A stretch of 64,000 nucleotides of DNA from Candidatus Lustribacter sp. GTDB taxonomy: Bacteria > Vulcanimicrobiota > Vulcanimicrobiia > Vulcanimicrobiales > Vulcanimicrobiaceae. The notes under the pieces are model-generated. The model searched no databases, was not told the origin of the DNA, and worked only from the letters and a program-made list of their open reading frames with translations. Location of the stretch: positions 2,080,001 to 2,144,000 of the forward strand of contig OZ255842.1 in the NCBI GenBank assembly GCA_965277805.1. The letters run 5' to 3'. Position 1 is the stretch's first letter; every line of letters starts with the position of its first letter. A program made the position numbers and the translations under genes. Below, in pieces: positions 12,198 through 27,458 of the stretch.

Positions 12198-12567
12198 CTA
12201 CGTCTTTGGTACGAGCGTAAAGTCGAACGGCATCGTAAGGAACGGCAAGGGCATGGAGAAGCGCTGAGCATCGATTTCCGTCGCCTCAATGTATGGCGCG
12301 ATCAGACCCTCTCGGACGCCGAACCCGGCATCTTTGCCGAGGAGCGGATCGCCCGCCGGGTAAATCGCGGATACGACCGTCTCGTAACCGTCTGCCCGGA
12401 GCATGGCGTGAATATGCGCCGGTCGCCCGGCCTTACGTCCCATCGCCCGAAGCATCTCACCGACGGTTTCTGTCGCTTGGCGCGTTTTCAACCGTCGCCA
12501 GCACGAGCCTCAGGGCGCTCTCTTCATTGAAATCGACGATGCCGGCGCTCGTTGTGGAAGCACTCAT
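12198..12567 (-). pseudogene. Internally deleted intradiol (hydroxyquinol/catechol 1,2-) dioxygenase
   Basis: ATG 12567 gives an N-terminal piece (MSASTTSAGIVDFNEESALRLVLATVENAP) joined out of frame to a C-terminal piece (VGEMLRAMGRKAGRPAHIH...GDPLLGKDAGFGVREGLI...FDFTL). Confidence 0.8.
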
Positions 12568-12570
12568 TTT

Positions 12571-13590
12571 TTATCCCTTAGAAGCTTCTGCGTACACGCG
12601 TAAGTAGTCGAGCACGACCTCTTTCGTGCGCGTGCGCGCGATACCGCACTCGGTGGAGATGCCGAAGCGTCCGACGTACTGCCGGGCGGCTTGCATGCGA
12701 GCCTTCGTGCCAGAAATGCCGTCGCTCGCGTGAACGAGCCCGAGAAACAATTCGGTCTCGGCCGGTAGGGCGAGATCGCGGAGCGGCGCAAAATAGGCAT
12801 CGTCCGTGCGGCCAGCCGGAACGGGCATGTGGATGTAGCTGATCGGGCGTGGCACCGCGCGCAGCAACAGCCCGGCCATCGACGCGAGCCGTTCGGTATC
12901 GCGCGGTTCGATGAAATGCTTGCCTTTATGATCGCCGTAGCACAAATGAAAGCCGAGACCAACGTCAGTTGGAACCGCCCCGCCGAGTCTTCCGAATGCT
13001 GCCGTTAGGCGATCTTCCAAATCGGGCGTCGCCGGCATGCGTGCCCAACCGCCGTCCCACATCAGCATCTCCATGCACACATCCCACTGAATCAACAGAT
13101 CCTCGTGCGGAATGGCCGCGCAGATCGTCTCGACTTCGCGTAGCATTGCGCGTTCGTATGCCGGCAAGATCACCGGCACCGCTTCACGCGCACAGTAGAC
13201 GACGACCACCGCCGTGGGCGTCGGCAGCGACACTTGAAAGCGGATCGACGGCGCTATGAGGCCTGCCGAGCGGGCTTTGAGAAAATCGACGTACGAGGTG
13301 CGCGCTTCGCGCGCGTACCCGAGTTCACCGAACCGGACGTCTTCGGGCGCGACATCCGGCGCAAGCGAAACGGCAGGGAACGCGCTTACCTGTTCGACCG
13401 GCGCGTCGTTCCTCAAGTACGGGTTTGAGGCGAGAACGGGATATTGCCAGAGGATCCAATGCCGCCGGCCACCCGGTTCGCCGTCCGGGATACTGCGCAA
13501 GTTCGAGCCGAGCATCGAGCCGATCGTCGCGAAGACGTCGTCGACCGTATCCAAGCCCACGCTGCCGACGAAGTGCACCGGATACGCCAT
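12571..13590 (-). CDS. URO-D/cobalamin-independent methionine synthase-fold protein
   Basis: HFVGSV, IPDGEPGGR, RFQVSLPTP, IQWDVC, GFHLCYGD, STECG; ATG 13590 with GGAG RBS. Confidence 0.7.
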   Translation of the reverse strand: MAYPVHFVGSVGLDTVDDVFATIGSMLGSNLRSIPDGEPGGRRHWILWQYPVLASNPYLRNDAPVEQVSAFPAVSLAPDVAPEDVRFGELGYAREARTSYVDFLKARSAGLIAPSIRFQVSLPTPTAVVVVYCAREAVPVILPAYERAMLREVETICAAIPHEDLLIQWDVCMEMLMWDGGWARMPATPDLEDRLTAAFGRLGGAVPTDVGLGFHLCYGDHKGKHFIEPRDTERLASMAGLLLRAVPRPISYIHMPVPAGRTDDAYFAPLRDLALPAETELFLGLVHASDGISGTKARMQAARQYVGRFGISTECGIARTRTKEVVLDYLRVYAEASKG

Positions 13591-13600
13591 GTTGTACTCC

Positions 13601-14809
13601 TTAATCCGTGCCGGTAATCGGCAGCAGGCCTTCGGGTCGAACGAACGACCGCAGCGGACGCCCTTCCGCCAGGGCCTTGAGCTCCGTGCTCCACAGCTTA
13701 CGCATCGCGATGATAGCGACGTCGGAACGTCCGAGGTGCTCGACGCCTTTGCGCCGGTCAGCGATGCGCCCCTGACCGGTTTGACAGACGTCGTCTTGCG
13801 CCATCGCAACATGGTGACAGAGCTGCGCCATGTCGTCGTAGCCGATGTCGCCGCGCAACACGGCCTGAGCTGCGACATGCGCCTCTTCCTCCGCGTTCGC
13901 AAACTGTTTCCAGCGCTCGGCGTATGCCGGATCGACCGTATCGCCATGAAGATGAACATTAATGAGACGCAATTCGAGGGTGCTTTCGTCGTCGATCGGC
14001 ACGCGATAGGCTAGGAAATCTTGCCAGGCAACCTCCGCCCGGTTCACTTTCTCCTCACCAGGCTTTTGAATATTGTCGGGATGGACAGTGAAGAGGCCGA
14101 TATTCGGCATGCCGAAAAGCACCTCGCGTTTGTGGCCATGGCGCGTGGCGATGCATTTCATGCCCCACGGGGTTTCCTCGGCCGCGATCTCGGGCAGCTG
14201 ATCGAAGTAGACTTTGGTGAACACCGATGTCCGGTGCGTGAACGCGAGATGGCCCTCGTCCATGAAGTTTTCCACGCACTGAAAGAAATTGCAAGCGCGC
14301 ACGCTCATGAGCGGCATGACGAGCTTTCCCCGCTCCCATTCGGGATACCGCGGAAACTCGGGCGGGTCGCCGCCGCCGAAGTACGCATAGATCAAACCGA
14401 GGTAATCGCGCGCGGGATAGCCGCCGATCTTGACGCGCTGCGCGTAGGTGCTGTCGGGCCCCTCGAGCGGCTGCTCGACGCATTGACCGTTCGCTTCGAA
14501 TTTCCAGCCATGGTACGGACATCGAATGCAGTCGCCTTCCACCCAGCCGGCGTTGAGTTGCGTTCCACGATGCGCGCAGGCTTGGTCGACACAGTGAATG
14601 TCGCCCGACTCGCCGCGGTAGAGCGCGTAGTTCTCACCCATGATGCGCAACGGACGCGCGCGCCCGGGCGCTACGCTCTCACTCAAAGCCACCGGATGCC
14701 AGAACGTGCGCATGTAGCGTCCCGCGATCGTACCGGGGCCGGTGTGGGCGAAATCGACGCCCTCGCCGGCGTCATTTACGGAGGCAGTTCCGGAGAGAGT
14801 GGTCGTCAT
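13601..14809 (-). CDS. Rieske non-heme iron oxygenase alpha subunit (phthalate 4,5-dioxygenase/LigXa-like), module 1
   Basis: CAHRG...CPYHG Rieske ligands; ENFMDEGHLAFTH iron site; TGPGTIAGRYMRTFWHPV. Confidence 0.92.
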   Translation of the reverse strand: MTTTLSGTASVNDAGEGVDFAHTGPGTIAGRYMRTFWHPVALSESVAPGRARPLRIMGENYALYRGESGDIHCVDQACAHRGTQLNAGWVEGDCIRCPYHGWKFEANGQCVEQPLEGPDSTYAQRVKIGGYPARDYLGLIYAYFGGGDPPEFPRYPEWERGKLVMPLMSVRACNFFQCVENFMDEGHLAFTHRTSVFTKVYFDQLPEIAAEETPWGMKCIATRHGHKREVLFGMPNIGLFTVHPDNIQKPGEEKVNRAEVAWQDFLAYRVPIDDESTLELRLINVHLHGDTVDPAYAERWKQFANAEEEAHVAAQAVLRGDIGYDDMAQLCHHVAMAQDDVCQTGQGRIADRRKGVEHLGRSDVAIIAMRKLWSTELKALAEGRPLRSFVRPEGLLPITGTD

Positions 14810-15810
14810 GAATACTCCTTACTTCGCGATTGAGCCAACGCGGCGCGTGCGATCTCTTCGTCTTCTTCGGCCGAGCGCGCTCCGGCGATCCCGAGCGCTC
14901 CCGCGACGCAACCAATTGCGTCAATGGTCGGCAGACCACCGGCAACGGCTAGAAAGGGAAAGCGAGCGAGACGCCCATACCCGGCTGCGTCCGCCGTCCA
15001 TGGACCTTCCGCGCCGCTGGGCGCTTGCAGGTTCACCGCTGTTGCCGCTTTGGCTTCTGCCAGATCCACCGTGATCGGCGCGGCGGAATCCATCCGGTCG
15101 AGCTGCACCAGATCGCCGTTACGGTCCGCGACCGCAGCACTGATGCGAACGCCTCGGCGCTGCGCTTCCGAAAACGCGGCGTCGACGACGGCCAGTGCCC
15201 AGGTCAGACGCTGCTGCTCGCGCGCCGGCGGCGGAGCGCTCAGACCCGTTCCGGAAGGCAGTGGATCGTACCGATTACCGTACGCCTTGCGCCAGCGCTC
15301 GAGATCGTCGCCGTGCTGTGGCGCATAATGATCCAGGCCGATCGCGTAGGAGATGATGAGGTCGATTGCATTCGCGGGCCGGCCTTCGACCAGAAACTTC
15401 TCCGGATCGACGCCGGGGGAACTGACCTCGGGCGGGATATCCGCTGCGGACGACATCGCTCCCACGTGCGCACCGTTGCGCGTGATCGGCATCGCGCCCG
15501 GTCCGGGGAAGCAGCGGTCGCGCAAGATGTCTTGATAGGCGGCGAAAACGCTCGGCGGCCGGCCGTAGATCCGTGCGGCGAAGCGGGCCGATGTTTCGCG
15601 GTTGGCCGCCGCCTCGTACGCCTTCGCGCGCGAGATGCCCATGCTGATCGATCCGGCGCCATCCATCCGCGACGCCGAAATGACGATGCCGCCCTCGTTG
15701 ACCACGACGAATGCGCCGCGCTGTCCGACGTCCTCGGCCTTGTCGACGGCACGCCGGAGCAGTTCACGCGCGTCGGCGAGCGAGAGCAGTGGAGCTTCGA
15801 ACCCCGTCAT
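14806..15810 (-). CDS. Tandem GlcG/HbpS-domain protein, module 1
   Basis: Two repeats of VV-D/N-xxG...RMDxA...AKA...GG/GA-LP; ATG 15810 coupled to the upstream stop. Confidence 0.8.
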   Translation of the reverse strand: MTGFEAPLLSLADARELLRRAVDKAEDVGQRGAFVVVNEGGIVISASRMDGAGSISMGISRAKAYEAAANRETSARFAARIYGRPPSVFAAYQDILRDRCFPGPGAMPITRNGAHVGAMSSAADIPPEVSSPGVDPEKFLVEGRPANAIDLIISYAIGLDHYAPQHGDDLERWRKAYGNRYDPLPSGTGLSAPPPAREQQRLTWALAVVDAAFSEAQRRGVRISAAVADRNGDLVQLDRMDSAAPITVDLAEAKAATAVNLQAPSGAEGPWTADAAGYGRLARFPFLAVAGGLPTIDAIGCVAGALGIAGARSAEEDEEIARAALAQSRSKEYS

Positions 15811-16412
15811 ACAAACGAACACGAGTCTTGGAATTCCAACCGAGGTAGCCGTCCGAACAACATATCCGGGTTACCGAATCCGACCGAACACAAGAAGTTC
15901 GAGCGATACGACGTGCCGGCCAAGAATGCTCGGTCGACGGCCTCGTGGTCGAATCCCGAGAGCGGCCCGCAATCGAGCCCCAGCGCACGCGCAGCGACGA
16001 TGAAATATGCACCCTGCAGGGTGGAATTGCGAAATGCCGTCGCTTCCGCGTACCCAGTGTCGTCCGCGTAATGGCCGCGCATGTCTTTGTGTGGAAAGAG
16101 CCGCGGCAGATGGTCGAAGAATCGCTCGTCGTAGGCGACGATCGCCGTTACAGGGGCGGACAGCACTTTCGGCTTGTTACCGGGGCTGACAGCCTCGGCC
16201 AGTTGCGCCTTCGCTTGAGCACTGCGCACAAAGATGAAGCGCGCCGGCTGCGAGTTCGTACTCGTGGGTCCGAGCTGGGCCAACCCGATCACCGCTCGGA
16301 GCAGCGCCTCGTCGACCTCCTTCGGCAACCAGCCGTTGTGGCTGCGCGCGGCCCGGAAGATCAAATCGAGACCCTGGTCGTCCAGGGCCCGACGATCGCA
16401 TTCGATATCCAT
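15807..16412 (-). CDS. rutE: Nitroreductase family, RutE-like malonic semialdehyde reductase
   Basis: ARSHNGW, GPTSTNSQPARFIFV, TAFRNSTLQGAY, GLDCGPLSGFD, SNFLCSVG, RLPRLEF. Confidence 0.8.
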   Translation of the reverse strand: MDIECDRRALDDQGLDLIFRAARSHNGWLPKEVDEALLRAVIGLAQLGPTSTNSQPARFIFVRSAQAKAQLAEAVSPGNKPKVLSAPVTAIVAYDERFFDHLPRLFPHKDMRGHYADDTGYAEATAFRNSTLQGAYFIVAARALGLDCGPLSGFDHEAVDRAFLAGTSYRSNFLCSVGFGNPDMLFGRLPRLEFQDSCSFV

Positions 16413-16435
16413 TAGCGCCTTCGCAGGTTCCTTTG

Positions 16436-16475
16436 TTTGAAGAATTTGTCTTTCAAGAATGTGTGTTTGAAGGTA
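16436..16475. promoter_or_regulatory. Candidate MarR operator in the divergent promoter
   Basis: TTTGAAGAAT/TTTCAAGAAT/TTTGAAGGTA at 15-bp spacing, forming TTGAA-N10-TTCAA and TTCAA-N10-TTGAA inverted repeats. Confidence 0.5.
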
Positions 16476-16525
16476 CTATGCATCTCGCGAGCCGAAACGT
16501 CAACCCTTCTCTAGGGGGTTATGCA

Positions 16526-17110
16526 GTGAAACCGCGGGACCACATCGACCTTGTGCGTAGGGCGGCGGGCATGCCGTCGTCCGACACGACGACGGTCGAA
16601 ATTACCAGCCGCCTTTTCCGGTTGTGCGCGCACTACGATCAACTCGTGTCGCCGCTCTACGCACGCCGCGGGCTGACGCGCGTCGAGCTGGATCTGCTTT
16701 GGGCGCTCGAACGCGCAGGCGATACGCCGCTGACGCCGACCAAGCTGGCGGCGCGGCAAATGTGCGCCTCGGGCACCCTCAGCAATCGCCTCGAAAAATT
16801 GGAGCGGCTGGGCCTGCTCACGCGTCAGGCGGATCCATCCGACCGGCGCGGCGTCCTGCTTGAGATCACCGAGCACGGCCGCACGATCGTCAACGAACTC
16901 AACGCGGCGCGCGAACGTATCGATGCACTTCTAATCCCCGGCCTGACCGTCGCGCAACGGCGCGCATTGGTGGACCTGCTGCGGACATCGCTCATTGCGG
17001 CCGAACAGATCGCGCAGCTGGAAACGGCGAGCGAGACGCCACCGTCCTCCGATGAAGAATCATCTGCACCGCAGCCAGCGCCGCTGCGCCGGACGCGTGC
17101 GGCCCGCTAA
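16526..17110 (+). CDS. MarR family regulator
   Basis: LTPTKLA, SGTLSNRLEKLERLGLLTRQADPSDRRGVLLEITEHG; GTG 16526 after AGGGGG. Confidence 0.9.
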   Translation: MKPRDHIDLVRRAAGMPSSDTTTVEITSRLFRLCAHYDQLVSPLYARRGLTRVELDLLWALERAGDTPLTPTKLAARQMCASGTLSNRLEKLERLGLLTRQADPSDRRGVLLEITEHGRTIVNELNAARERIDALLIPGLTVAQRRALVDLLRTSLIAAEQIAQLETASETPPSSDEESSAPQPAPLRRTRAAR

Positions 17111-17143
17111 CATTTCTGCAAACCGCTGTAAGGAAAGGCCCTG

Positions 17144-17527
17144 ATGCAGGTTACCAAAGACGATGTCATGCAAGCCAGCAAAGGCATGCTACAGAAGCAA
17201 TTCTACGTCGTGTTCAGTACGCCGACGAATGGGATTGGTCCCGTGATGGAAAACCTCGAGGCACACCTCGCGCACCAATGCAAGATCGAGGCGGACGGAA
17301 TCATGGTGGCGGCCGGCCCGTACTGGACCGATGACGAGAAGCAATGGGAAGGCGAGGGCATGTTCGTCATTCGTGCGCGATCCCTCGCGCATGCGAAGGA
17401 ACTTGCGGCGAGCGACCCGATGCACAAATGCGGAGCGCGGTCGTTCGTCGTCCGGCCATGGATGGTGAATGAAGGCGGCCTCACTATCCGGCTCACGTTC
17501 TCGGACGGGAAATTCGTTCTTGAGTAA
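17144..17527 (+). CDS. YciI family protein, module 1
   Basis: HLAHQ, AAGP, GMFVIRA, SDPMHKCGARSF; AAGGAAAGG RBS. Confidence 0.85.
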   Translation: MQVTKDDVMQASKGMLQKQFYVVFSTPTNGIGPVMENLEAHLAHQCKIEADGIMVAAGPYWTDDEKQWEGEGMFVIRARSLAHAKELAASDPMHKCGARSFVVRPWMVNEGGLTIRLTFSDGKFVLE

Positions 17528-17573
17528 CGACGTTCCTGAACGGTCTTCTCGCAGCGCCTCGGAGTTCTACTGA

Positions 17574-18764
17574 ATGCCGTCACTAGCGAAGCTCTCGGAG
17601 TCCACTCGCAACTCCGTTTTGACCCTGCCGGTCGACCTCCACGAGTCGAGCCCGTTCACGCGGCCCAAGAAGCCACTCAGCCAATCGCGGGTCGCGATCG
17701 TCACGACGGCCGGATTACACCGCCGCGACGACCGGCCGTTTACCGGCGGGGATCCGACCTTCCGAGCCATACCCTCAGGAACGCCGGCGTCAGAGATCGT
17801 GCAAAGCCACACCAGCATCGGGTTCGACCGGACCGCCGTGCTCGAGGACATCAACGTCGTTTTTCCGATCGAGCGGTTGCGCGAGATGCTTTCGGCGGGT
17901 CGCATCGGGGAGTTGGCGCCGACCTTCTATTCGTTCATGGGCGCGCAGCGTGACTGGTCACCGATCAGGGAGCGAACGGGACCCGAAGTTGCGAACCTGT
18001 TGGTCGGCGATGGTGTCGACGTCGTCTTACTTACACCAACTTGACCACTTTGCACGAACACGGTCAGTGTTCTCTCACGGGTCTTGGAAGAAAACGGGCT
18101 CACGACGGTCGCTTTGAGTCTGATCCGCGAACACACGGAAAAAGTGAAGCCTCCGCGCGCCGTGTACGTTCCCTTTCCGTTGGGTCTGCCGGTCGGTCAT
18201 CCCGGAAACGTTTCCGAACAGGAGGCCGTCTTGGACTTGGCATTTTCCACTCTCGATGCCGCCAGCGGCCCCGTGCTGCTCGACTATCGCGATGACTCGG
18301 CAGCCGAGGAGGCCGGCTCGCCGCTTCAGGCCTCCGACGTCGATGCGGACGAGCAGGCTCGGACGGCTGACTTCGCTACGGAAGTGACGTTGATGCGGCG
18401 CTATTGGGAGCAGCACGTCGCGGCGACCGGCCGCACCGGCGTCGGCTTATCGAACGTCCCGCCGCAGCGGTTCCGCGGCGTCGTGCGGTTTCTCGAAGCT
18501 CTTCTCACCGATCAAACGGCCGACTCGGACGAACGGCCGGCGGAGGTGCCGAGACCGCTGTTCATCCGGACGTGCCTCGAGGACCTACGCGTGATGTACA
18601 GTGAAGCGCGCTTGCAAACGCATCCACATGAGTCAAGTCAAGACCGGCAACGTTGGTTGCTCGGCTCGACCGCGCTCGGGCTCATGCTGCGCAGCCTGCG
18701 CGATACCTTCGACGCCTCGACCGATCCGCAGTTCAAAGCGCTCGCCTTCGGTATCGCGCGCTGA
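17574..18764 (+). CDS. GrdB/PrdB-like selenoprotein (396 aa, Sec157 in a UPLC motif, C-terminal extension)
   Basis: ORFs 17574..18044 and 18084..18764 are in one frame separated only by TGA 18042-18044; read-through gives VVLLTPT-U-PLCTNTVSVLSRVLEENGLTT, aligning with LVLLLPF-C-PACHRATGLVARALEARGLPT in the paralogue at 26580; RVAIVTTAG, GDPTFR, DINVVFPIERL, KPPR, PFPLG motifs. Confidence 0.85.
18056..18072 (+). promoter_or_regulatory. Candidate bacterial SECIS element
   Basis: GAACAC-GGTCA-GTGTTC: perfect 6-bp stem, 5-nt loop starting GG, beginning 11 nt after the in-frame UGA. Confidence 0.75.
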
Positions 18765-18768
18765 TTCG

Positions 18769-19152
18769 ATGGAAGAACAGGAGCGGTTCTCATCCTTACA
18801 CACATGGGCACGGCGCGCGGGAGACGTCGTGACGGTCGGTATCAGCGCCTACGCCGAACATCAATTGGGTGAGCTGCAATACGTCGGTCTACCGCGCGTC
18901 GGCTCTGCCGTTGTGAAAGACCAGTGCTTCGGTGAGGCTGAATCGACGAAGACCGTTTCCGACCTCTACGCTCCGTGCAGCGGCACCGTCGTTGCGGTCA
19001 ACTCCGAACTCATTGCCGATCCTGCGCTGGTCAATCGCGATCCGTATGGCGCGGGGTGGATAATACTGGTTGAGCCGTCGCAGCCCGGGGAATTCCACGA
19101 ATTGCTCGACCAGCCGGCGTACGACGCGTTCGTCGCCACGCAGGAGCATTGA
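18769..19152 (+). CDS. gcvH: Glycine cleavage H-type lipoyl carrier protein (standalone)
   Basis: VGISAYAEHQLG, AESTKTVSDLYAP (lipoyl Lys), VNRDPYGAGW. Confidence 0.9.
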   Translation: MEEQERFSSLHTWARRAGDVVTVGISAYAEHQLGELQYVGLPRVGSAVVKDQCFGEAESTKTVSDLYAPCSGTVVAVNSELIADPALVNRDPYGAGWIILVEPSQPGEFHELLDQPAYDAFVATQEH

Positions 19153-19197
19153 GGCATCCAAGCTATGCTTTCAACCTAAGATGATAAGCGAGGGGGC

Positions 19198-19501
19198 TTG
19201 TACCACGTGCTAAGATCCACATTCGTCTCTTCCAGTCTGAGCCTAACGGCAGCGGCGGAATTGCCGCTGCCGGTAGGCGCCCAATCTGTCGCGTTCGCTC
19301 CAGATGCCACCCGAAGCCGTCGGGCAGAGGTGGTTACGACAATGAACCTTGCGCGCCCGGGCGTTTCGCAGGCGTGGATCCCCTTGCCGTCAGTGAGCGC
19401 CCTAGCCGTTCTTGATGTATCCTCAAGCCGTGAACGCGGGCATCGCCTGCGACTGCCTCGATCCAAAGGCTGTCGCTTATTCGATCACGGTAACGGCCTA
19501 G
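19198..19501 (+). pseudogene. Remnant of a transglutaminase-like exported protein (both ends only)
   Basis: AQSVAFAP...EVVTTMNL...SQAWIPLPSV, then in another frame PFLMYPQAVNAG...DCLDPKAVAYSIT* (19406-19501); family recognised from memory. Confidence 0.5.
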
Positions 19502-19544
19502 TTTCTCTCTTCGAAGGCGACGCGACGTTCCCGAGGTACTCAAC

Positions 19545-20516
19545 ATGTCCGCTGCAATCCATTCGCTCGATCACTTTAGCTTCGCCGTCCCTGACGTAGC
19601 CGCCGCGGCTGCGTTCTACGAACGCTTCGGCCTCGATGTCCGCTCGGAAGGTACGGGTTTCACGCTGCGCGCGAGCGGCAGCGATCACGTTTGGGGTCGC
19701 ATTTACGAAGGCCCGCGAAAAGCCATCGGTTACCTCTCGTTCGGCGCGTACGAGCACGATATGCCGCAACTGCGCAAGCAAGTCGCCGGATGCGGAGTGG
19801 CGTTACTGCCGGCTCCGAAACGTGCCGTCGACGATGGCGGGGTGTGGTTCGAGGATCCGGACGGGACACTAATAGAGATTCGCGTCGGTCCGAAGGTCTC
19901 GCCTGACGTAAAAGCTGCGCTGAGCGCGACGTTTGCCCCGCCCGATGTCGCTGGTGCGCCCATGCGCTCCGACGCCAAGACGGTGCGGCCCGACCGTCTT
20001 TCGCACGTGCTCGTGTTCACGAGCGATGTCTCGCGCGCGATCGACTTTTATCGCGAGACCGTTGGCATGCAGCTCTCCGATCGGGCTCGGGACGGCATCG
20101 GGTTCATGCACGGCGCACACGGCAGCGACCATCACCTCGTCGCATTCGCGAAATCTGACGCTCGCGGATTTCATCATTGCAGTTGGAACGTAGCTTCGGT
20201 GAGCGATGTCGGCCTAGGTGCGATGCAAATGGCCGATGCGGGATACACTCGCGGGTGGGGAATGGGGCGGCACGTACTCGGGTCAAACTATTTTGACTAC
20301 ATCCGCGACCCGTGGGGAAGCTACTCCGAATATTCCTACGATATCGATTTCGTCACTCCGGGAGCGGTTGCGAAAGGCACGTGGAAAGCGACCGACGCAT
20401 CGCCCGAAAATGGCTTCTACTTGTGGGGGCCGTTGCCACCTGACGATTTCGCCTTTAATTACGAGTCGCCGTCGGCCGAATTACAACGGGACCTCGTCGC
20501 AAGCGAACCGCGGTAA
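19545..20516 (+). CDS. Two-domain VOC protein, extradiol dioxygenase-like
   Basis: HSLDHF, RLSHVL, SDHHLVAF, HHCSW, GMGRHVLGSNYFDYIRDPWGSYSEY. Confidence 0.9.
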   Translation: MSAAIHSLDHFSFAVPDVAAAAAFYERFGLDVRSEGTGFTLRASGSDHVWGRIYEGPRKAIGYLSFGAYEHDMPQLRKQVAGCGVALLPAPKRAVDDGGVWFEDPDGTLIEIRVGPKVSPDVKAALSATFAPPDVAGAPMRSDAKTVRPDRLSHVLVFTSDVSRAIDFYRETVGMQLSDRARDGIGFMHGAHGSDHHLVAFAKSDARGFHHCSWNVASVSDVGLGAMQMADAGYTRGWGMGRHVLGSNYFDYIRDPWGSYSEYSYDIDFVTPGAVAKGTWKATDASPENGFYLWGPLPPDDFAFNYESPSAELQRDLVASEPR

Positions 20517-22634: not shown

Positions 22635-23492
22635 CTAATCGCCTTCTGACACTTCCCCGCGACGATCGCGAAGCCGCACTAGTCGCTGAAGCGCGCTGCT
22701 GCTTTCCTCATCAACGGGCGTCTGCAGGAACACCATGACCCCCGGAAGTGCGGGCGGCTCCAGCGTCATGGACCTCACCGCGATCGGTCCGGCGGCCGTT
22801 TCGAAAGTGATCGGCGTCGCCGGACCACGGCCCACGATCTTTTCCGACCACGCGCGCGTGAAGTCGGGTGAATCGGCGAGCGCGTCTAGCAGCTCGTCGA
22901 TACGCGCATCCGCACCGTGACGCGCGTACAATGAGCGAAAGATGGCCACCGGACCGAGCGACATCTCGTCCCAGCTCCGCACGATATGGCGGAGCGCCGG
23001 ATCCTTGAACATGCGCCAGATGTGATTGTTGGCTTTCCAATCGGTTGCGTCGCTGAACTCGTAGAGGGCCGCCGTGCGCCGATTCCAGGCAAGGTGATCC
23101 ATGCGGGCGTTGACCGCGAACGCGCTGCCGGTGAACGCGTGCAGCATCGCCTGGACATCGGCCGGAACCGCGGTGACCAGCTCGCCCCACGGCACGATCT
23201 GCCGTTCGGCCAGGCCGAAGACATAGCCCGACTCTTCCGGCGAAAGGCGCAGCACGCGAGAAATCCGCGTAAGGACTTCGGACGAGGGGCGTACTGGGCG
23301 CCCTTGCTCGAGCCAGGTGTACCAAACGACGCCAATGTGCGCCAGGCTGGCCACCTCCTCGCGACGCAAGCCACGCGCGATCCGGCGCGCACCTCGCTCT
23401 AAGCCGGCAGCCTCTGGCGCGATCGCCTGGCGCCGCGAGCGCAAGAACATGCCGAGCTCTTTGCGACGTGCGGCCGGGTCATCAGAATTCAT
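22635..23492 (-). CDS. XRE-HTH regulator with MmyB-like ligand-binding domain
   Basis: ELGMFLRSRR, GLRREEVASLAHIGVVWYTWLEQGR, LAWN. Confidence 0.9.
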   Translation of the reverse strand: MNSDDPAARRKELGMFLRSRRQAIAPEAAGLERGARRIARGLRREEVASLAHIGVVWYTWLEQGRPVRPSSEVLTRISRVLRLSPEESGYVFGLAERQIVPWGELVTAVPADVQAMLHAFTGSAFAVNARMDHLAWNRRTAALYEFSDATDWKANNHIWRMFKDPALRHIVRSWDEMSLGPVAIFRSLYARHGADARIDELLDALADSPDFTRAWSEKIVGRGPATPITFETAAGPIAVRSMTLEPPALPGVMVFLQTPVDEESSSALQRLVRLRDRRGEVSEGD

Positions 23493-23506
23493 GACAGCTC
23501 TTTGAG

Positions 23507-23529
23507 GAGTACTCGCAGTACTAGTACTG
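23507..23529. promoter_or_regulatory. Candidate operator of the MmyB-like regulator
   Basis: Three AGTACT palindromic hexamers clustered (GAGTACTC-G-CAGTACT-AGTACTG) between divergent starts. Confidence 0.4.
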
Positions 23530-23599
23530 TTTCTTGCCTTTGTGGCGGCCGCACTCCTGTGCTACAAAGCCTCGGACGGTACTTGCGGGGGATGCGCTC

Positions 23600-24607
23600 A
23601 TGACTGATTCCGGCACATTTTCGCTTGCCAAAGCCCGCGCATTGCTTTCGCGCGCCGTAGCAAAATGCGAGGCCTTTGGGCAATCCGGCACCTTCGTCGT
23701 CGTCGACGCCTCGGGCGCTCCGGTGAGCGTGGCGCGTATGGACGGCTGCGCCCCCTCGGCGCTGCCGCTGGTTCGTGCGAAGGCGTTCGCCACCGCCGCG
23801 AACGGCGAGCCGAGCGCGCTCTTCGCCGCACGCATGGAGAAGTTCGGTCCCCACACGTTTGCGAGCTATCAGGCCGTTCTGCGCGACCAGCCGTTTCCGG
23901 GCGCCGGCGGTGTACCGGTGCGGGAGAACGGGAGGATCGTCGGAGCGATTGCGACCGGCCTGCGCATCGGGCCGTTCGTCAAGTTGCCCGGCATCTCGCC
24001 GTCGCAACTGATCGCCGACGGCAAGCCGGGCAATCTCGAGGATACGATCATCAGCTACGCGCTCGGCGTACCGTACAATCCGCAGCACGGCGATGACGCT
24101 GCGCGCTGGACCGAAGCCTATGGCGCGCCGCCGGACCCGGCGGAAAAAGGAACGGCCATGGACCCGGTTCCGGAAGCGAGCGCGCAACCCGAACTCGCGC
24201 GCGCGCGCGCAATTGCCGATCGCGTGATCGCGCGCGCCACGGAAAAGGGCGCGCGCGTGGCCGTTGCGGTTGTCGATGCGGCCGGCGATGCCGTCACGCT
24301 CGATCGCATGGACGGCGCGCCGCCGATGGGGGTCGACGTCGCCGCAGCCACCGCGACCGCCGCCGTCAATTTTGGCATGGCGTCGGGGGCGATCGCAGCC
24401 GACCGCCACTATTCGAGCGTTCTCGACAGCGTGCTCACAACCGTCCCATACCGGATGCTGACGTTGCCCGGCGGATGTCCGATTCGCAGCGGAACGGCGG
24501 TGCTCGCTGCCATCGGTGTGTATTGTCATGATCTCGACCTCGCCGCCGAGCTTGCGCAGAGTGCGGCGGATTGGGTCTTACCGCAATTCGAAGGAAGTGG
24601 TCAATGA
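23600..24607 (+). CDS. Tandem GlcG/HbpS-domain protein, module 2
   Basis: VVVDASG...RMDG...AKA, then VVDAAG...RMDGA; shares IISYAxG...YxPQHGDD linker with the 14806 gene. Confidence 0.8.
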   Translation: MTDSGTFSLAKARALLSRAVAKCEAFGQSGTFVVVDASGAPVSVARMDGCAPSALPLVRAKAFATAANGEPSALFAARMEKFGPHTFASYQAVLRDQPFPGAGGVPVRENGRIVGAIATGLRIGPFVKLPGISPSQLIADGKPGNLEDTIISYALGVPYNPQHGDDAARWTEAYGAPPDPAEKGTAMDPVPEASAQPELARARAIADRVIARATEKGARVAVAVVDAAGDAVTLDRMDGAPPMGVDVAAATATAAVNFGMASGAIAADRHYSSVLDSVLTTVPYRMLTLPGGCPIRSGTAVLAAIGVYCHDLDLAAELAQSAADWVLPQFEGSGQ

Positions 24608-25809
24608 TAGAACAGGATCGCATCGACATCGACATCGCTCCGCTCACCGATCCTGGCACGGTCGACTATGTCCACACCGGCCCCGGCACCTTGGCCGGCA
24701 CCTACTTACGGCGCTTTTGGCACCCCGTCTATTGCAGCCGTAACCTCGAGCCCGGCTTCGCTAAGCCGCTGACGATCATGAGCCAGAAATTGGCGCTGTA
24801 CCGCAGCCAGGAAGGCCAGGTCCACTGCGTCGACAACCGCTGTGCGCATCGCGGCGCGATGCTCAGCACGGGCTGGGTCGAGGGCGACGTCATCCGCTGC
24901 CCCTATCATGGCTGGGCGTACGGGGCCGATGGCAGGTGCGTGGAGCAGCCGATGGAACGAGCGACATTCGCCAAGCATATTCGCATCGGCGGCTACCCGA
25001 CGCAAGAATATCTCGGCTTCATCTGGCTCTATCTCGGCAACGGCGAACCGCCCCCGTTTATACGCTATCCCGAATGGGAGAATGCGCCCTTCGTTTCCGC
25101 TCAGATCGACACGCGGCCATGCAATTGGTTTCAGAACATCGAGAACTATCAAGACGAAGCTCACGTTTGGTTCACGCACAAGCGCTCCGCGCTCGAAGGC
25201 CTCGATCTGAACCATCTGCCGCAGCTCTCGTGTGAGAAAACGCCCTGGGGCTTGCGTATGATCGCAAAGAAACAGGACGGCAACGACCGCATCGTGCAGT
25301 TCGGTATGCCCAACATCTGCATGTTCGCCGTGCATCCGGACAACATTAAACGCCAGGGCGAAGAACGCAACGCCGACGAGACAGCGTGGCAGATGTTCCT
25401 CGACTACCGGGTGCCGGTGGACGATTTCTCGCATCTGCAAGTGCACTGTATCGCGACGTTCATGAACGGGACGCCCAGCGAAGAGTACAAGAAGCGCTGG
25501 AAAGACTTCGCGAACGCCGAAGCCGAGGCCCACGAGGTCGCGCAGAAAGTGCTGCGCGGCGAACTCCAGTACGATAGGATCGCCGAAATATGCCACCACG
25601 TGCCACTTGCGCAAGACGAAGTTGTGCAAGTGGGCCAGGGCGTCATTGCGGATCGCCGGCGCGGCATCGAAAATCTGGGCTCGACGGACGTCGGCGTCGT
25701 CGCGATCCGGCGACTGTATACGCAGGAGCTCACGGCGCTGGCCGAAGGCCGGCCGCTCGGGAATTTCGAGCGGCCGGAGGGACTGTTGCCCAAAGGCGGC
25801 GGCGACTAA
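24604..25809 (+). CDS. Rieske non-heme iron oxygenase alpha subunit, module 2
   Basis: CAHRG...CPYHG; ENYQDEAHVWFTH; paralogue of 13601 (VHPDNI, FANAExEAH, CHHV..AQD). Confidence 0.92.
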   Translation: MIEQDRIDIDIAPLTDPGTVDYVHTGPGTLAGTYLRRFWHPVYCSRNLEPGFAKPLTIMSQKLALYRSQEGQVHCVDNRCAHRGAMLSTGWVEGDVIRCPYHGWAYGADGRCVEQPMERATFAKHIRIGGYPTQEYLGFIWLYLGNGEPPPFIRYPEWENAPFVSAQIDTRPCNWFQNIENYQDEAHVWFTHKRSALEGLDLNHLPQLSCEKTPWGLRMIAKKQDGNDRIVQFGMPNICMFAVHPDNIKRQGEERNADETAWQMFLDYRVPVDDFSHLQVHCIATFMNGTPSEEYKKRWKDFANAEAEAHEVAQKVLRGELQYDRIAEICHHVPLAQDEVVQVGQGVIADRRRGIENLGSTDVGVVAIRRLYTQELTALAEGRPLGNFERPEGLLPKGGGD

Positions 25810-26192
25810 TGCCGGTTTCCAAAGAGGACATCCTTGAAGCCGGTAAAGGCATGCTGCAAAAGCAGTATTACGTCGTCTTCAGCACGCCGACGAACGGTAT
25901 CGGTCCCGTGATGGAAAATCTCGAGGCGCACCTCGCGCATCAATGTAAGATCGAGGCCGACGGCATTATGGTGGCGGCCGGACCGCACTGGACGGATGAC
26001 GAGACGCAGTGGGAGGGCGACGGGATGTTCGTCATCCGCGCACGGGACCTCGTGCACGCAAAGGAGCTTGCGGCGAGCGATCCGATGCACAAATGCGGAG
26101 CGCGGTCGTTCAAAGTCCGCCCGTGGCTGGTGTGCGAAGGCGGCTTTACCATACGGATCACGTTTTCGGACGGCAAATTCGCACTCGAGTAA
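25809..26192 (+). CDS. YciI family protein, module 2
   Basis: 127 aa, 108/127 identical to 17144..17527 by manual count; TAATG coupling. Confidence 0.88.
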   Translation: MPVSKEDILEAGKGMLQKQYYVVFSTPTNGIGPVMENLEAHLAHQCKIEADGIMVAAGPHWTDDETQWEGDGMFVIRARDLVHAKELAASDPMHKCGARSFKVRPWLVCEGGFTIRITFSDGKFALE

Positions 26193-26223
26193 CGTCGCGC
26201 TCATCGGCGGAAAGTGAAGGCTC

Positions 26224-26577
26224 ATGCTCTACCTCAGAATGTGTTTTGACAGTCCCGGTAAGGAACAGCTCCGCGATGCCACGCGGTCGGAGCACCGCGC
26301 CTACCTCGTCCCATTTCTGGCCCCCGGCGGGGACGTCCACATCGTTCAGGCCGGTCCCATGTGCGGCAGCGATGAGAGCGATCAGAACGTGGGCAGCTTT
26401 TTCGTCGTCGAAGCCACGTCGATAAAGGCGGTCGAGGCCTTTCACGCCGGCGATCCGTTCACGCAAAAAGGCGTGTTCGGAAACGCGACGGTCGTGCGGT
26501 GGGATCGGCACATCGACAGTAGCAGCGAATCGCACGCGACGTTCGCCGCACAAAACGCCCGGCCGGCTGTCGGATAA
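26224..26577 (+). CDS. YciI family protein (divergent)
   Basis: RSEHRAYL, QAGP, GSFFVVEA, GDPF. Confidence 0.85.
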   Translation: MLYLRMCFDSPGKEQLRDATRSEHRAYLVPFLAPGGDVHIVQAGPMCGSDESDQNVGSFFVVEATSIKAVEAFHAGDPFTQKGVFGNATVVRWDRHIDSSSESHATFAAQNARPAVG

Positions 26578-26579
26578 CG

Positions 26580-27458
26580 ATGCCGTACAGCTTCTCCCGC
26601 TTTCTGGCCGAACTGGGGCGATCGATTCCGATGCCCGAATTCGATCCGCCCACGCTCGTGCCGTTGCGCAAGCCCATCGCCGAGTCGACAATCGGGATGT
26701 TCGTCAGCTGCGGCGCGCAACTGCCCGAAGACCCGCCGCTGCTCGAGACGGAAGACATCACGTTCCGGTTGTTGCCACGCGACGTCCCGACCGATCGACT
26801 AGTCATTTCGCATCAAACGCTGGTACGGAAGTGGGCGGTAGAAGACCTGAACGTCGCATACCCGATCGACCGCATGAAGGAGCTGGAACGTGAGGGAACG
26901 TTCAAGCGGCTCGCGCACACAAACGTCTCAATGGTCGGTTCGATCGAGCGCTATACCGAATTGATGGAACAGACAGTGCCGCGGATGAAGGCCGTCTTTG
27001 ACTCGCAAGGTGTCGACCTCGTCTTGTTGCTGCCGTTCTGCCCCGCATGTCATCGGGCGACGGGCCTCGTCGCTCGGGCGTTGGAGGCCCGCGGGCTGCC
27101 GACCATTAGCACGAGCGTGCTGTGGGAAATGAGCGCTGCCGTCAAGCCGCCGCGCACGTGCTTCCTAGATTTTCCGCTAGGTTGCCCGGCCGGCAAGCCG
27201 CACGAAGTAGCGCAGCAGCGCGACATTCTCCGTCAAACGCTGCAACTCGCACCGGAGTTCGACGCCGACAGCTGGGCGATGAAGTCGCTGCCGTTTCAAT
27301 GGGATGCCGACGGAAGTCGCGACTGGGAGCGCGCGACAGAAGACCTCTACCGAAACGGTGGAATCAAGATTACCGATCGGCACATGGCGGCGCACGCAAA
27401 CGTCGGCGAGTCGTTACTTGGCAACGAGCGCGCCTTCGCAGTCAAATGTAACTGTTAA
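26580..27458 (+). CDS. GrdB/PrdB-like protein, cysteine form (CPAC), ending in CNC
   Basis: DLNVAYPIDRMKEL, GVDLVLLLPFCPACH, LEARGLPT, VKPPR, FPLGCPAGKP. Confidence 0.85.
   Translation: MPYSFSRFLAELGRSIPMPEFDPPTLVPLRKPIAESTIGMFVSCGAQLPEDPPLLETEDITFRLLPRDVPTDRLVISHQTLVRKWAVEDLNVAYPIDRMKELEREGTFKRLAHTNVSMVGSIERYTELMEQTVPRMKAVFDSQGVDLVLLLPFCPACHRATGLVARALEARGLPTISTSVLWEMSAAVKPPRTCFLDFPLGCPAGKPHEVAQQRDILRQTLQLAPEFDADSWAMKSLPFQWDADGSRDWERATEDLYRNGGIKITDRHMAAHANVGESLLGNERAFAVKCNC

Follow-up and report, generated by a model that had tools for sequence, protein, structure and literature searches.

PrdB is the 26-kDa selenoprotein subunit of clostridial D-proline reductase (EC 1.21.4.1), and together with GrdB, GrdF and GrdH, the B proteins of glycine, sarcosine and betaine reductase (PF07355), it provides the closest described relatives of the gene reported here. 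The GrdB motif has been described in a review as UxxCxxC (PMC13188914), and a role in breaking the C-F bond of fluoroacetate has been proposed for the GrdB-like protein FarB, meaning that the selenocysteine (Sec) chemistry of the family is thought to reach leaving groups beyond nitrogen (PMC10838667). Catalogues of ocean metagenomes have listed selenoproteins named PrdB since 2005, and this environmental "proline reductase PrdB" family, described by pfam07355 and a UxxC motif, comprises 42 Sargasso Sea genes and, in the GOS data, 235 Sec and 110 Cys forms (PMC1088965, PMC2398784). Our literature search for a PrdB-like selenoprotein returned no paper, and a phrase search for GrdB/PrdB homologues returned none on aerobic stand-alone forms.

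We analysed a window of 64,000 nucleotides from a Candidatus Lustribacter genome, in which a complete selenoprotein gene is predicted on the plus strand at 17574..18764. Two ORFs, 17574..18044 (156 aa) and 18084..18764 (226 aa), lie in one common frame, and between position 17574 and the terminal TGA (18762-18764) the single in-frame stop is the TGA at 18042-18044. The initial annotation had claimed exactly this arrangement, and our frame check agreed with it. Read-through of the 396 codons preceding the terminal TGA reproduced the proposed product, a protein of 396 residues with the motif T-P-T-U-P-L-C, in which Sec would be residue 157 and the first residue of U-P-L-C. A Shine-Dalgarno-like GGAG (17561..17564, plus strand), read from the sequence, lies 9 nt upstream of the ATG at 17574, and this start is backed by an M-P-(S/R)-L N-terminus common to the orthologues in an alignment of 22 sequences. 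The TGC at 18051..18053 (plus strand) encodes Cys160, which is invariant in the same alignment and, by analogy with the family, would be the resolving cysteine of the UxxC. Downstream of Sec157 the motif reads U-P-L-C-T-N-T, that is, UxxCxxT. Differences fall mainly on third codon positions both upstream of the TGA (0.32, 0.26 and 0.55 per codon position) and downstream of it (0.39, 0.31 and 0.58), which is coding-type substitution. Contigs from three public runs, all of one sample and possibly the assembly's own source, showed 0 differences over the whole stretch, indicating that the TGA is not a sequencing error. TGC or TGT at this codon had been named in the initial annotation as evidence that would speak against recoding; the contigs retain the TGA.

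About 90 loci, spread over many phyla, have the TGA at this one codon. At the genus level it occupies the aligned codon in 8/8 full-length copies with 57-64% identity, these copies coming from 6 of the 7 other genomes of the genus and from a second copy in the present genome, and the family-level copy (n=1), at 38% identity, has it as well. One cross-phylum scan found TGA in 33/33 site-covering loci, labelled Methylomirabilota/Rokubacteria, Dehalococcoidia, Chloroflexota, Binatia, Terriglobia, Acidoferrum, Acidimicrobiia and Micromonosporaceae. A second scan, which included SAR202, Entotheonella, Thermoleophilaceae and Limnocylindria, found it in 56/56 loci; these locus sets overlap, and some of the 56 loci are probably from the same genomes as the genus-level set. 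Codon 157 is TGC in two actinomycete orthologues, from Umezawaea and Streptomyces, and three paralogues within the genome carry Cys at the aligned site. One of these is the short paralogue at 26580..27458 (plus strand, 292 aa), which reads L-P-F-C-P-A-C there, as had been reported; BLASTP aligned it with the selenoprotein across the TGA, at 35% identity over 190 residues (E 9e-39). Residue 157 in the homologues is thus Sec (TGA) or Cys and nothing else, neither Trp nor any other residue.

The minimal SECIS of E. coli fdhF is a 17-nt element located 11 nt from the UGA. A SECIS-type hairpin, GAACAC-GGUCA-GUGUUC, is found at 18056..18072 (plus strand), with its 5' arm at 18056-18061, its loop at 18062-18066 and its 3' arm at 18067-18072; it has 6 bp, measures 17 nt and starts 11 nt after the UGA, so that spacing and size match the minimal fdhF element. 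In each of the three stretches folded, the minimum-free-energy structure contained the hairpin. Its folding energy was no better than chance (z -0.55, 0.33 and 0.00 for the three stretches), with 59/200 shuffles of the 49-nt stretch (z -0.55) folding at least as well. What places the hairpin above chance is the conservation of the TGA together with covariation of the stem across relatives. The upper stem was paired in 48/48 cells, with changes on both sides in 3 of the 6 pairs, and a fourth compensatory pair was found in the second (56-locus) scan. Stem covariation amounted to 0.214 compared with 0.063 in shuffles, 1 of 500 shuffles being as high, and slid controls did not exceed 0.132. A perfect stem was seen in 38 of 42 Sec loci, and the two Cys forms keep only 3 and 4 of the 6 stem pairs. 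The stem lies within a coding motif, C-T-H-T-x-G-V, that is itself conserved, and the protein thus accounts for some of the conservation of the stem. At the stem wobble position 42/42 Sec loci have T, and the adjoining loop codon varies (GGC, GTC, GGT, GGG, GGA, GTG); these wobble counts and the compensatory changes address the protein-driven conservation but do not remove it. A permissive Rfam search of 17500-19200 gave two chance-level matches, neither of them a SECIS. The loop starts with GGUC in the window and in the genus, and with CGGNG or CGUGA in other phyla. The E. coli fdhF minimal SECIS has been printed with a GGUC loop (PMC10945757), and both elements are short stem-loops just 3' of the UGA whose loops open with GGUC; by contrast with the fdhF element, no bulged U is evident in the present hairpin and the stem sequence is unrelated. 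The hairpin of the initial annotation was thus recovered, and it is conserved with compensatory changes.

The genome, a single contig, encodes the machinery that such a gene would need. Searches for the four components proposed as a check on recoding found all of them above curated cut-offs: selA (481.9 bits), selB (269.8), selD (379.8) and tRNA-Sec (75.8 bits), the last also called by ARAGORN. The closest relatives of selA bear the label Ca. Lustribacter / Eremiobacterota, and our literature search found no paper combining Eremiobacterota with selenocysteine.

The surroundings of the gene are those of a catabolic island. On the plus strand, a MarR-family regulator (16433..17110) heads a run continued by a YCII-family gene (17144..17527; PF03795), which ends 46 nt upstream of the selenoprotein gene and shares 85% and 94% identity with the YCII genes in the two Cys-paralogue modules, then by the selenoprotein gene itself and by a second copy of the lipoyl carrier GcvH (18769..19152; PF01597, 1.1e-34; TIGR00527, 116.4 bits against a cut-off of 115.85). 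The GcvH gene begins 5 nt after the selenoprotein stop and encodes E-S-T-K around Lys61, which we take to be the lipoylation motif; a housekeeping gcvT-gcvH pair is located elsewhere (C1:5218298-5219757). Divergent from this run, profile matches identify a nitroreductase-family gene, an HbpS-like gene and a Rieske oxygenase gene (13601..16412, minus strand), the first of which matches the malonic semialdehyde reductase model with 272 bits. The Cys paralogue at 26580..27458, with its C-P-A-C, is the last gene of a module comprising an MmyB regulator, HbpS-like, Rieske, YCII, YCII and PrdB-like (Cys) genes. The selenoprotein gene is set among Rieske oxygenase and ring-cleavage (extradiol) dioxygenase genes, and the oxygenase-based island described earlier stands. 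A promoter and terminator scan of 16300-19600 gave no terminator-like site and one promoter-like site, on the minus strand.

Both actinomycete Cys forms lie among genes of similar character. The Umezawaea locus contains a dienelactone hydrolase, a muconate-cycloisomerase-like gene, DUF1330, the Cys form, GcvH and an FAD monooxygenase, and in Streptomyces the Cys form lies between DUF1330 and an intradiol dioxygenase, a dienelactone hydrolase and an Fe-alcohol-dehydrogenase-family gene. A small protein is encoded directly upstream at all three loci (the window, Umezawaea and Streptomyces); YCII and DUF1330 both have a dimeric alpha+beta-barrel fold. Across the wider family the neighbourhood varies. 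YCII, MarR and GcvH were found beside 0/42 other loci (E 1e-6), GcvH beside 1/92 loci, and clustering of flanking ORFs from 42 loci gave no universal partner. The recurrent neighbours, each at no more than 9/42 loci, were LivK-type ABC transporter genes, MFS transporters, 2-hydroxyacid dehydrogenase, luciferase-like monooxygenase and enoyl-CoA hydratase/3-hydroxyacyl-CoA dehydrogenase. In 13 Dehalococcoidia/SAR202 loci the other strand carries an enolase-superfamily gene 1.2-2.6 kb downstream; considered as a functional partner, it was rejected and read as synteny of that clade.

Taken as a sequence-based assignment, the gene at 17574-18764 is very probably a real selenoprotein gene of a long-form family within the GrdB/PrdB superfamily, and its product has the candidate function of a stand-alone selenol/thiol reductase. 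The best NCBIfam match is PrdB (TIGR04483; 146.8 bits, E 6.6e-43), over residues 26-224 and across the TGA. The match to PF07355 (GRDB; 43 bits against a gathering cut-off of 22) ends at residue 156, the last model position. The PrdB-like domain (approximately 26-224) is followed by an unnamed all-helical C-terminal domain (approximately 240-396), and the 22-sequence alignment is conserved from end to end. An AF2 model (pLDDT 89.7, pTM 0.90) places Sec157 and Cys160 where beta-strand 150-154 meets helix 158-173; when the PDB was searched with this model by Foldseek, 0 matches reached E <=0.001 and the best TM was 0.27. When the ESM Atlas was queried with residues 235-394 of a Cys homologue (P0033), the nearest clusters were unnamed "hypothetical proteins" of 172-229 aa, most likely split C-terminal halves of the same long PrdB-like family.

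Could a true selenoprotein of this kind serve instead as a general thiol-disulfide or peroxide-linked relay of the redoxin type, without cleaving a bond in a small molecule? Sequence and profile searches of solved structures matched glutaredoxins alone, over the strand-UxxC-helix segment, and in one case (L032) a peroxiredoxin-like frame that ends in FTPV-TGA comes after a short-form gene. The glutaredoxin matches, however, are weak and not significant (E 0.05-0.12), and beside the long form no redoxin partner was seen in the loci examined. Moreover, many charged or polar residues beyond the motif are invariant in the 22 sequences (R64, H79, D85, D92, R101, R185, H187, K192 and R195), and these residues together with the conserved extra domain of 160 residues suggest a specific substrate pocket. 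We therefore consider a redoxin-type relay unlikely, and favour a stand-alone reductase acting on a small substrate.

It is very improbable that this protein serves as PrdB in a true D-proline reductase, or as subunit B in a glycine, sarcosine or betaine reductase. It is homologous to PrdB over residues 26-224 and would carry Sec in a UxxC at the equivalent place, PrdB is its best-matching model, and JGI names its relatives accordingly. Its scores nevertheless fall below the curated cut-offs, both for PrdB (146.8 bits against the TIGR04483 equivalog cut-off of 300) and for the TIGR01918 selenoprotein-B subfamily (50.5 bits against 65.45). Unlike PrdB, it is longer by about 160 residues, the helical C-terminal domain, and it resides in an aerobic, oxygenase-rich context. 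With GrdB, GrdF and GrdH it shares the superfamily PF07355, but only the C-terminal third of these proteins of about 430 residues aligns (approximately 205-404 of 431-435 model positions), and its UxxCxxT differs from the UxxCxxC described for GrdB (PMC13188914). Nor were partner subunits found. For PrdA and GrdE there were 0 matches to TIGR04480 and PF09338 (GrdE/PrdA) in the genome (a single contig of 5.53 Mb, 95% complete), a search with no positive control because the family is absent from all 14 control genomes, and for GrdA there was no PF04723 match in the genome, the control genomes giving no positive either. The initial annotation had noted the lack of grdA, grdE and prdA near the gene, and profile searches found none anywhere in the genome; as the pyruvoyl partner subunits are missing, the protein does not appear to belong to a D-proline or glycine reductase. 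Finally, that the TGA is a true stop (two genes, a pseudogene or a sequencing error), or encodes another residue such as Trp or Gly, has a practically negligible probability: gene callers do give two ORFs and most database entries are halves, but the TGA is kept across phyla with coding-type substitution on both sides, relatives have Cys at the codon, the stem covaries, the three-run contigs are identical, TGA serves as an ordinary stop more often than any other codon in the window (22 of 47 called genes) and ends the selenoprotein gene itself, and ARAGORN gave only a tRNA-SeC with anticodon tca.

For the favoured stand-alone reductase, we propose that SelB with Sec-tRNA(Sec) would be recruited by the 17-nt hairpin, and that the UGA at 18042-18044 would be read as Sec, a recoding to which the sequence comparisons point. 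The selenolate of Sec157 would attack an electrophilic atom of a small substrate, Cys160 would resolve the adduct to give a selenenyl-sulfide, and a dithiol would re-reduce the latter. Selenolate and resolving-Cys chemistry and a dithiol donor are presumably as in PrdB, and by this analogy the catalytic cycle is a serious possibility that falls somewhat short of being probable. Within the cycle, the donor here would probably be lipoyl GcvH, a candidate electron donor because its second copy adjoins the selenoprotein stop and GcvH recurs in the Umezawaea Cys-form locus; as an assignment in its own right, the gene at 18769..19152 as dithiol donor is rather doubtful. A family member would here have joined a set of clustered catabolic genes of the aerobic, aromatic type. 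In its most extended form, the proposal holds that long PrdB-like proteins may be single-polypeptide Se/S reductases with no pyruvoyl partner and an orphan GcvH donor, whose substrate would be an intermediate in the aerobic breakdown of aromatic rings, from which they might, for example, reductively remove a substituent adjacent to a carboxylate or carbonyl; this we regard as a long shot.

In public collections the family is held mostly as halves cut at the UGA, as was anticipated for a selenoenzyme of 396 aa that standard pipelines would split in two. By our tally, 73 of the best 150 family matches in a representative protein library are halves cut at the Sec codon, and among the best 120 matches in another collection 104 are C-terminal halves named "hypothetical protein", indicating that the family is systematically mis-annotated in soil and marine genomes. 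The description of the gene as a "hidden selenoprotein" holds as far as the split annotation is concerned; "hidden" goes too far, since the family has long been catalogued (PMC1088965, PMC2398784) and both JGI and NCBI already name full-length relatives as PrdB or selenoprotein B, for instance "D-proline reductase (dithiol) PrdB" in JGI. The present gene has the features of the environmental PrdB genes, namely a pfam07355 domain, a predicted Sec in UxxC and no Stickland partners found. Resemblance to the Sargasso Sea and GOS genes extends to the coexistence of Sec and Cys forms and to oxic habitats without such partners, a match resting on published descriptions that may concern short forms, long forms or both; unlike them, the present gene belongs to a lineage of the soil/peat type.

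Sec is kept in every non-actinomycete locus examined of the long PrdB-like family, across many largely aerobic phyla, and the gene described here places selenium use in an Eremiobacterota-type organism. The Cys forms of cultured actinomycetes, located in aromatic-catabolism clusters and in one case adjoining GcvH, offer a practical route to the function of the enzyme. If the proposed role is true, selenium chemistry of the Stickland type would have been recruited into the oxygenase pathways of soil bacteria.

The two ORFs predicted on the forward strand at 17574..18044 (156 aa) and 18084..18764 (226 aa) share one frame, in which TGA 18042-18044 is the sole stop between 17574 and the terminal TGA, as the initial annotation had described. 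Translation of this UGA as U gives a 396-residue protein with the motif T-P-T-U-P-L-C, in which Sec is residue 157. The Cys paralogue in the window (26580-27458, 292 aa) has L-P-F-C-P-A-C at the aligned site, and the BLASTP alignment of the two proteins (35% identity over 190 residues, E 9e-39) runs unbroken through the TGA; both motifs had been read correctly. A Sec/Cys pair at one aligned position is a classical signature of a selenoprotein family, and Cys occupies the aligned site in three shorter paralogues of the same genome. An assembly error at the UGA was ruled out, since the contigs of three runs (all from one sample, possibly the source of the assembly itself) match the whole stretch with 0 differences. 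Genome-wide recoding of TGA was ruled out because ordinary stops in the window are most often TGA, which ends 22 of 47 heuristically called genes of at least 150 aa and also terminates the selenoprotein gene itself.

The window sits in a 5.53-Mb single-contig genome, in which selA (481.9 bits), the adjoining selB (269.8 bits; 303.5 once its C-terminal piece is included), selD (379.8 bits) and tRNA-Sec (75.8 bits, Rfam RF01852; called tRNA-SeC(tca) by ARAGORN) were all four found. A six-frame search of 41 genomes for the long form, the approximately 396-aa protein with an additional helical C-terminal domain, detected full-length copies in six of the seven other genomes of the genus and a second copy in the same genome (57-64% identity). 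Each of these genus-level copies contains exactly one TGA, at the same codon, within TP(T/S)-U-PLC, and a 38% identical copy from another genus of the family also has a TGA, in G-A-U-P-M-C. A pattern scan with one genome per species gave 34 loci, with labels including Methylomirabilota/Rokubacteria, Dehalococcoidia, Chloroflexota, Binatia, Terriglobia, Acidoferrum, Acidimicrobiia and Micromonosporaceae; all 33 that cover the Sec site have TGA there. The same was true of 56 of 56 additional loci, SAR202, Entotheonella, Thermoleophilaceae, Solirubrobacterales and Limnocylindria among them, obtained from the best 80 of 267 relatives in a family-alignment scan, although the three sets overlap and some of the 56 probably represent genomes of the 41-genome search. 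The full-length orthologues from Umezawaea (46% identical to the window protein) and Streptomyces have TGC at this codon, so that homologues at residue 157 carry either TGA (Sec) or Cys. Coding constraint extends across the UGA: among 21 orthologues, the differing bases at codon positions 1/2/3 were 0.32/0.26/0.55 upstream and 0.39/0.31/0.58 downstream, and in the 22-sequence alignment conservation reaches the final residue.

The 17-nt hairpin GAACAC-GGUCA-GUGUUC had also been placed correctly, at 18056-18072 (plus strand), 11 nt past the UGA. The minimal E. coli fdhF SECIS element is likewise 17 nt long and 11 nt from its UGA. The loop of the minimal E. coli element, given as GGUC in PMC10945757, is the start of the hairpin loop in the Lustribacter genus. 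No matching family was found by an Rfam search. The hairpin was present in the minimum-energy fold of all three stretches folded, with an unremarkable folding energy (z -0.55; 59 of 200 shuffles fold as well). Every element described in the initial annotation was borne out; whether it carries any meaning was judged by comparing genomes. When the nine closest copies are aligned, the upper stem of 6 bp is paired in 48 of 48 cells, and both partners are changed in three of the six pairs (G-C to U-A, C-G to A-U and A-U to G-C). The covariation score of the stem was 0.214. Shuffles gave 0.063 ± 0.030, with 1 of 500 reaching 0.214, and sliding the partner columns as a control gave at most 0.132. A perfect 6-bp stem occurs in 38 of 42 Sec-form loci, with five pairs in two and four pairs in another two; the 56 additional loci have six pairs in 22 cases and five in 34, and contribute a fourth compensatory pair (CACAC/GUGUG versus CACGC/GCGUG). 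Because the stem lies within conserved coding sequence, wobble positions were inspected. The codon whose third base is paired in the stem is NGT in all 42 Sec-form loci, while the preceding codon, with its third base in the loop, varies freely (GGC 11, GTC 10, GGT 8, GGG 8, GGA 3, GTG 2). A fixed stem wobble beside a free loop wobble is what selection on RNA structure would predict, and what selection on the protein would not. Both Cys-form orthologues have GGC as the stem codon, and their stems retain only 3 and 4 of the 6 pairs. Sequence comparison shows a single gene whose UGA is kept as a sense codon, equivalent to Cys, with a hairpin constrained by its structure and a complete Sec machinery in the genome. 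This supports the selenoprotein interpretation of the initial annotation, and 17574-18764 is almost certainly a real selenoprotein gene.

The gene belongs to a kind already known. 'Proline reductase PrdB' with UxxC is described as the third most abundant selenoprotein family of the Sargasso Sea (42 genes); it also ranks with the most abundant families of GOS, where 235 Sec and 110 Cys forms are assigned to pfam07355 (PMC1088965, PMC2398784). Full-length relatives are named 'D-proline reductase (dithiol) PrdB' by JGI, and the Umezawaea protein 'glycine/sarcosine/betaine reductase selenoprotein B family protein' by NCBI. Most relatives are found in pieces: 104 of the 120 best matches are C-terminal halves of 218-235 aa, nameless or called 'hypothetical protein'. 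The family profile matched 4016 proteins of a 50%-identity representative library at E <=0.001 (398 at <=1e-30), and of the best 150 of these, 62 begin just past the Sec codon and 11 stop just short of it. The match to PF07355 (Pfam GRDB; 43 bits, cut-off 22) ends at residue 156, which corresponds to the last position of the model (347 of 347). This model seems to stop at the selenocysteine and may help to perpetuate truncated annotations.

Which member of the family does the gene encode? Assignment as the D-proline reductase subunit PrdB was rejected, since the best NCBIfam match, PrdB TIGR04483 (146.8 bits, residues 26-224), is well below the 300-bit equivalog cut-off and PrdA has no match in the genome. 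Glycine-type protein B was rejected on the score for the selenoprotein-B subfamily TIGR01918 (50.5 bits, cut-off 65.45), the missing GrdA and the motif, which is UxxCxxT in place of the GrdB motif UxxCxxC given in PMC13188914. The searches for PrdA (TIGR04480), the GrdE/PrdA family (PF09338) and GrdA (PF04723) gave 0 matches in the genome, the control genomes being ones without these families and thus offering no positive control. The protein is a superfamily member, and sub-cut-off scores, missing partners and motif together make it neither of the two. A confident AlphaFold2 model from the 22-sequence alignment (pLDDT 89.7, pTM 0.90) puts Sec157 and Cys160 where strand 150-154 meets helix 158-173, and predicts an all-helical domain for residues ~240-396. 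PDB sequence searches found no outside relative of either domain (best E 0.05, glutaredoxins over the motif only), and a Foldseek search of the PDB with the model yielded no match at E <=0.001. With a natural Cys homologue as query, the ESM Atlas clusters nearest the C-terminal domain were unnamed 'hypothetical proteins' of 172-229 aa, most likely split halves of the same PrdB-like family.

On the plus strand, the selenoprotein gene follows a MarR regulator (16433-17110) and, directly, a YCII-family gene (17144-17527). A GcvH gene (18769-19152; TIGR00527 116.4 bits, cut-off 115.85) starts 5 nt after its stop, and an extradiol-type dioxygenase gene (19545-20516) comes after a 392-nt gap (19153-19544), which has no called gene and in which a scan detected neither a terminator-like site nor a promoter-like one on the plus strand. 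Divergent from this run, the minus strand carries genes for a nitroreductase-family protein, an HbpS-like protein and a Rieske oxygenase. A housekeeping gcvT-gcvH pair lies elsewhere (C1:5218298-5219757, on the genome's single contig), and the GcvH of the window is therefore a second copy; it keeps the E-S-T-K motif with Lys61, presumably the lipoylation site. Further upstream, a 97-aa ORF of the intradiol dioxygenase family (12198-12491, minus strand) matches only C-terminal profile positions 103-180 of 182 and may be a truncated gene or have a mis-set start; the adjoining ~1.1 kb at 12492-13600 has no ORF in the heuristic gene list.

The Cys paralogue closes a module (MmyB regulator, HbpS-like, Rieske, YCII, YCII, PrdB-like(Cys)) that occurs twice in the genome, at 22635-27458 of the window and at C1:2201779-2206608, with 81-94% protein identity between the copies. 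The YCII protein next to the Sec gene shares 85% and 94% identity with the first YCII of each module. One plus-strand YCII gene of the window copy spans 25809-26192. The third PrdB-like(Cys) copy (C1:1531289-1532164, 92% identical) is not accompanied by the module. The second Sec long-form copy (C1:3856659-3857819, locus L036/L078; 58% identical, TGA at the same codon) lies in a different setting, kept within the genus, with NAD(P)HX dehydratase/epimerase, MFS transporters and NAD-dependent DNA ligase. The window proteins, searched against the whole genome (tblastn, E 1e-8), gave 105 alignment rows with each Rieske oxygenase and 268 with the NMT1/THI5-like binding protein. Such rows are not equivalent to genes; they point to very large expansions of both families.

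None of the window neighbours is conserved beside orthologues. In 42 other loci (tblastn, E 1e-6) there was no YCII, MarR, nitroreductase or GcvH match, Rieske matches occurred in two and a glyoxalase match in one; among 92 loci, GcvH was found beside the Umezawaea gene only. Other flanks are heterogeneous (LivK-type ABC transporters, MFS transporters, dehydrogenases, a luciferase-like monooxygenase). An enolase-superfamily (MR_MLE) gene lies on the opposite strand 1.2-2.6 kb downstream in 13 Dehalococcoidia/Chloroflexota/SAR202 loci (L179, L180, L182-L185, L189, L195, L196, L198, L201, L205 and L207), which is probably clade synteny. Downstream of a short-form PrdB-like selenoprotein of ~225 aa (G-G-U-P-L-C-H-R-T) in a sister-family genome (L032, ~417 onward), the same frame continues with a peroxiredoxin-like stretch that ends in FFPLAFTPV-TGA; this stretch may represent another selenoprotein, with Sec as its peroxidatic residue. 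More telling are the Cys-form loci of the two cultured actinomycetes. In Umezawaea the order is dienelactone hydrolase, muconate-cycloisomerase-like enzyme, DUF1330, PrdB-like(Cys), GcvH and FAD monooxygenase-cytochrome b5; in Streptomyces it is CoA transferase, muconate-cycloisomerase-like enzyme, DUF1330, PrdB-like(Cys), intradiol dioxygenase, dienelactone hydrolase and an Fe-alcohol-dehydrogenase-family gene. With the window, three distant lineages therefore have the gene among aromatic-ring catabolic genes. GcvH directly follows it in two of the three (the window and Umezawaea), and a small protein directly precedes it in all three, YCII or DUF1330, which we take to be dimeric alpha+beta-barrel families.

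For decoding, SelB would bind the hairpin and deliver Sec-tRNA(Sec) to the UGA. The catalytic steps can be guessed from accounts of the family (PMC13188914, PMC9312934 and the FarB proposal in PMC10838667): the Sec157 selenolate would attack an electrophilic carbon bearing a leaving group, Cys160 would resolve the selenoether to a selenenyl-sulfide, and a dithiol would restore the enzyme. This scheme is our best-supported guess. With no pyruvoyl subunit, substrate activation must differ from that of PrdAB or GrdBE, and the conserved helical domain, together with the many invariant charged residues of the 22-sequence alignment, may form the substrate pocket instead. The lipoyl protein GcvH is a candidate dithiol donor at this locus, though a doubtful one. 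The main functional rival to catalysis by selenolate attack, a redoxin-type relay with no small-molecule substrate, seems to us rather unlikely.

The nearest relatives of selA are labelled Ca. Lustribacter / Eremiobacterota, and our literature search found no paper joining Eremiobacterota with selenocysteine. To a family already known, the locus thus adds a host lineage, the fact that Sec is kept without exception at the non-actinomycete loci examined, and the leads towards GcvH and aromatic catabolism.
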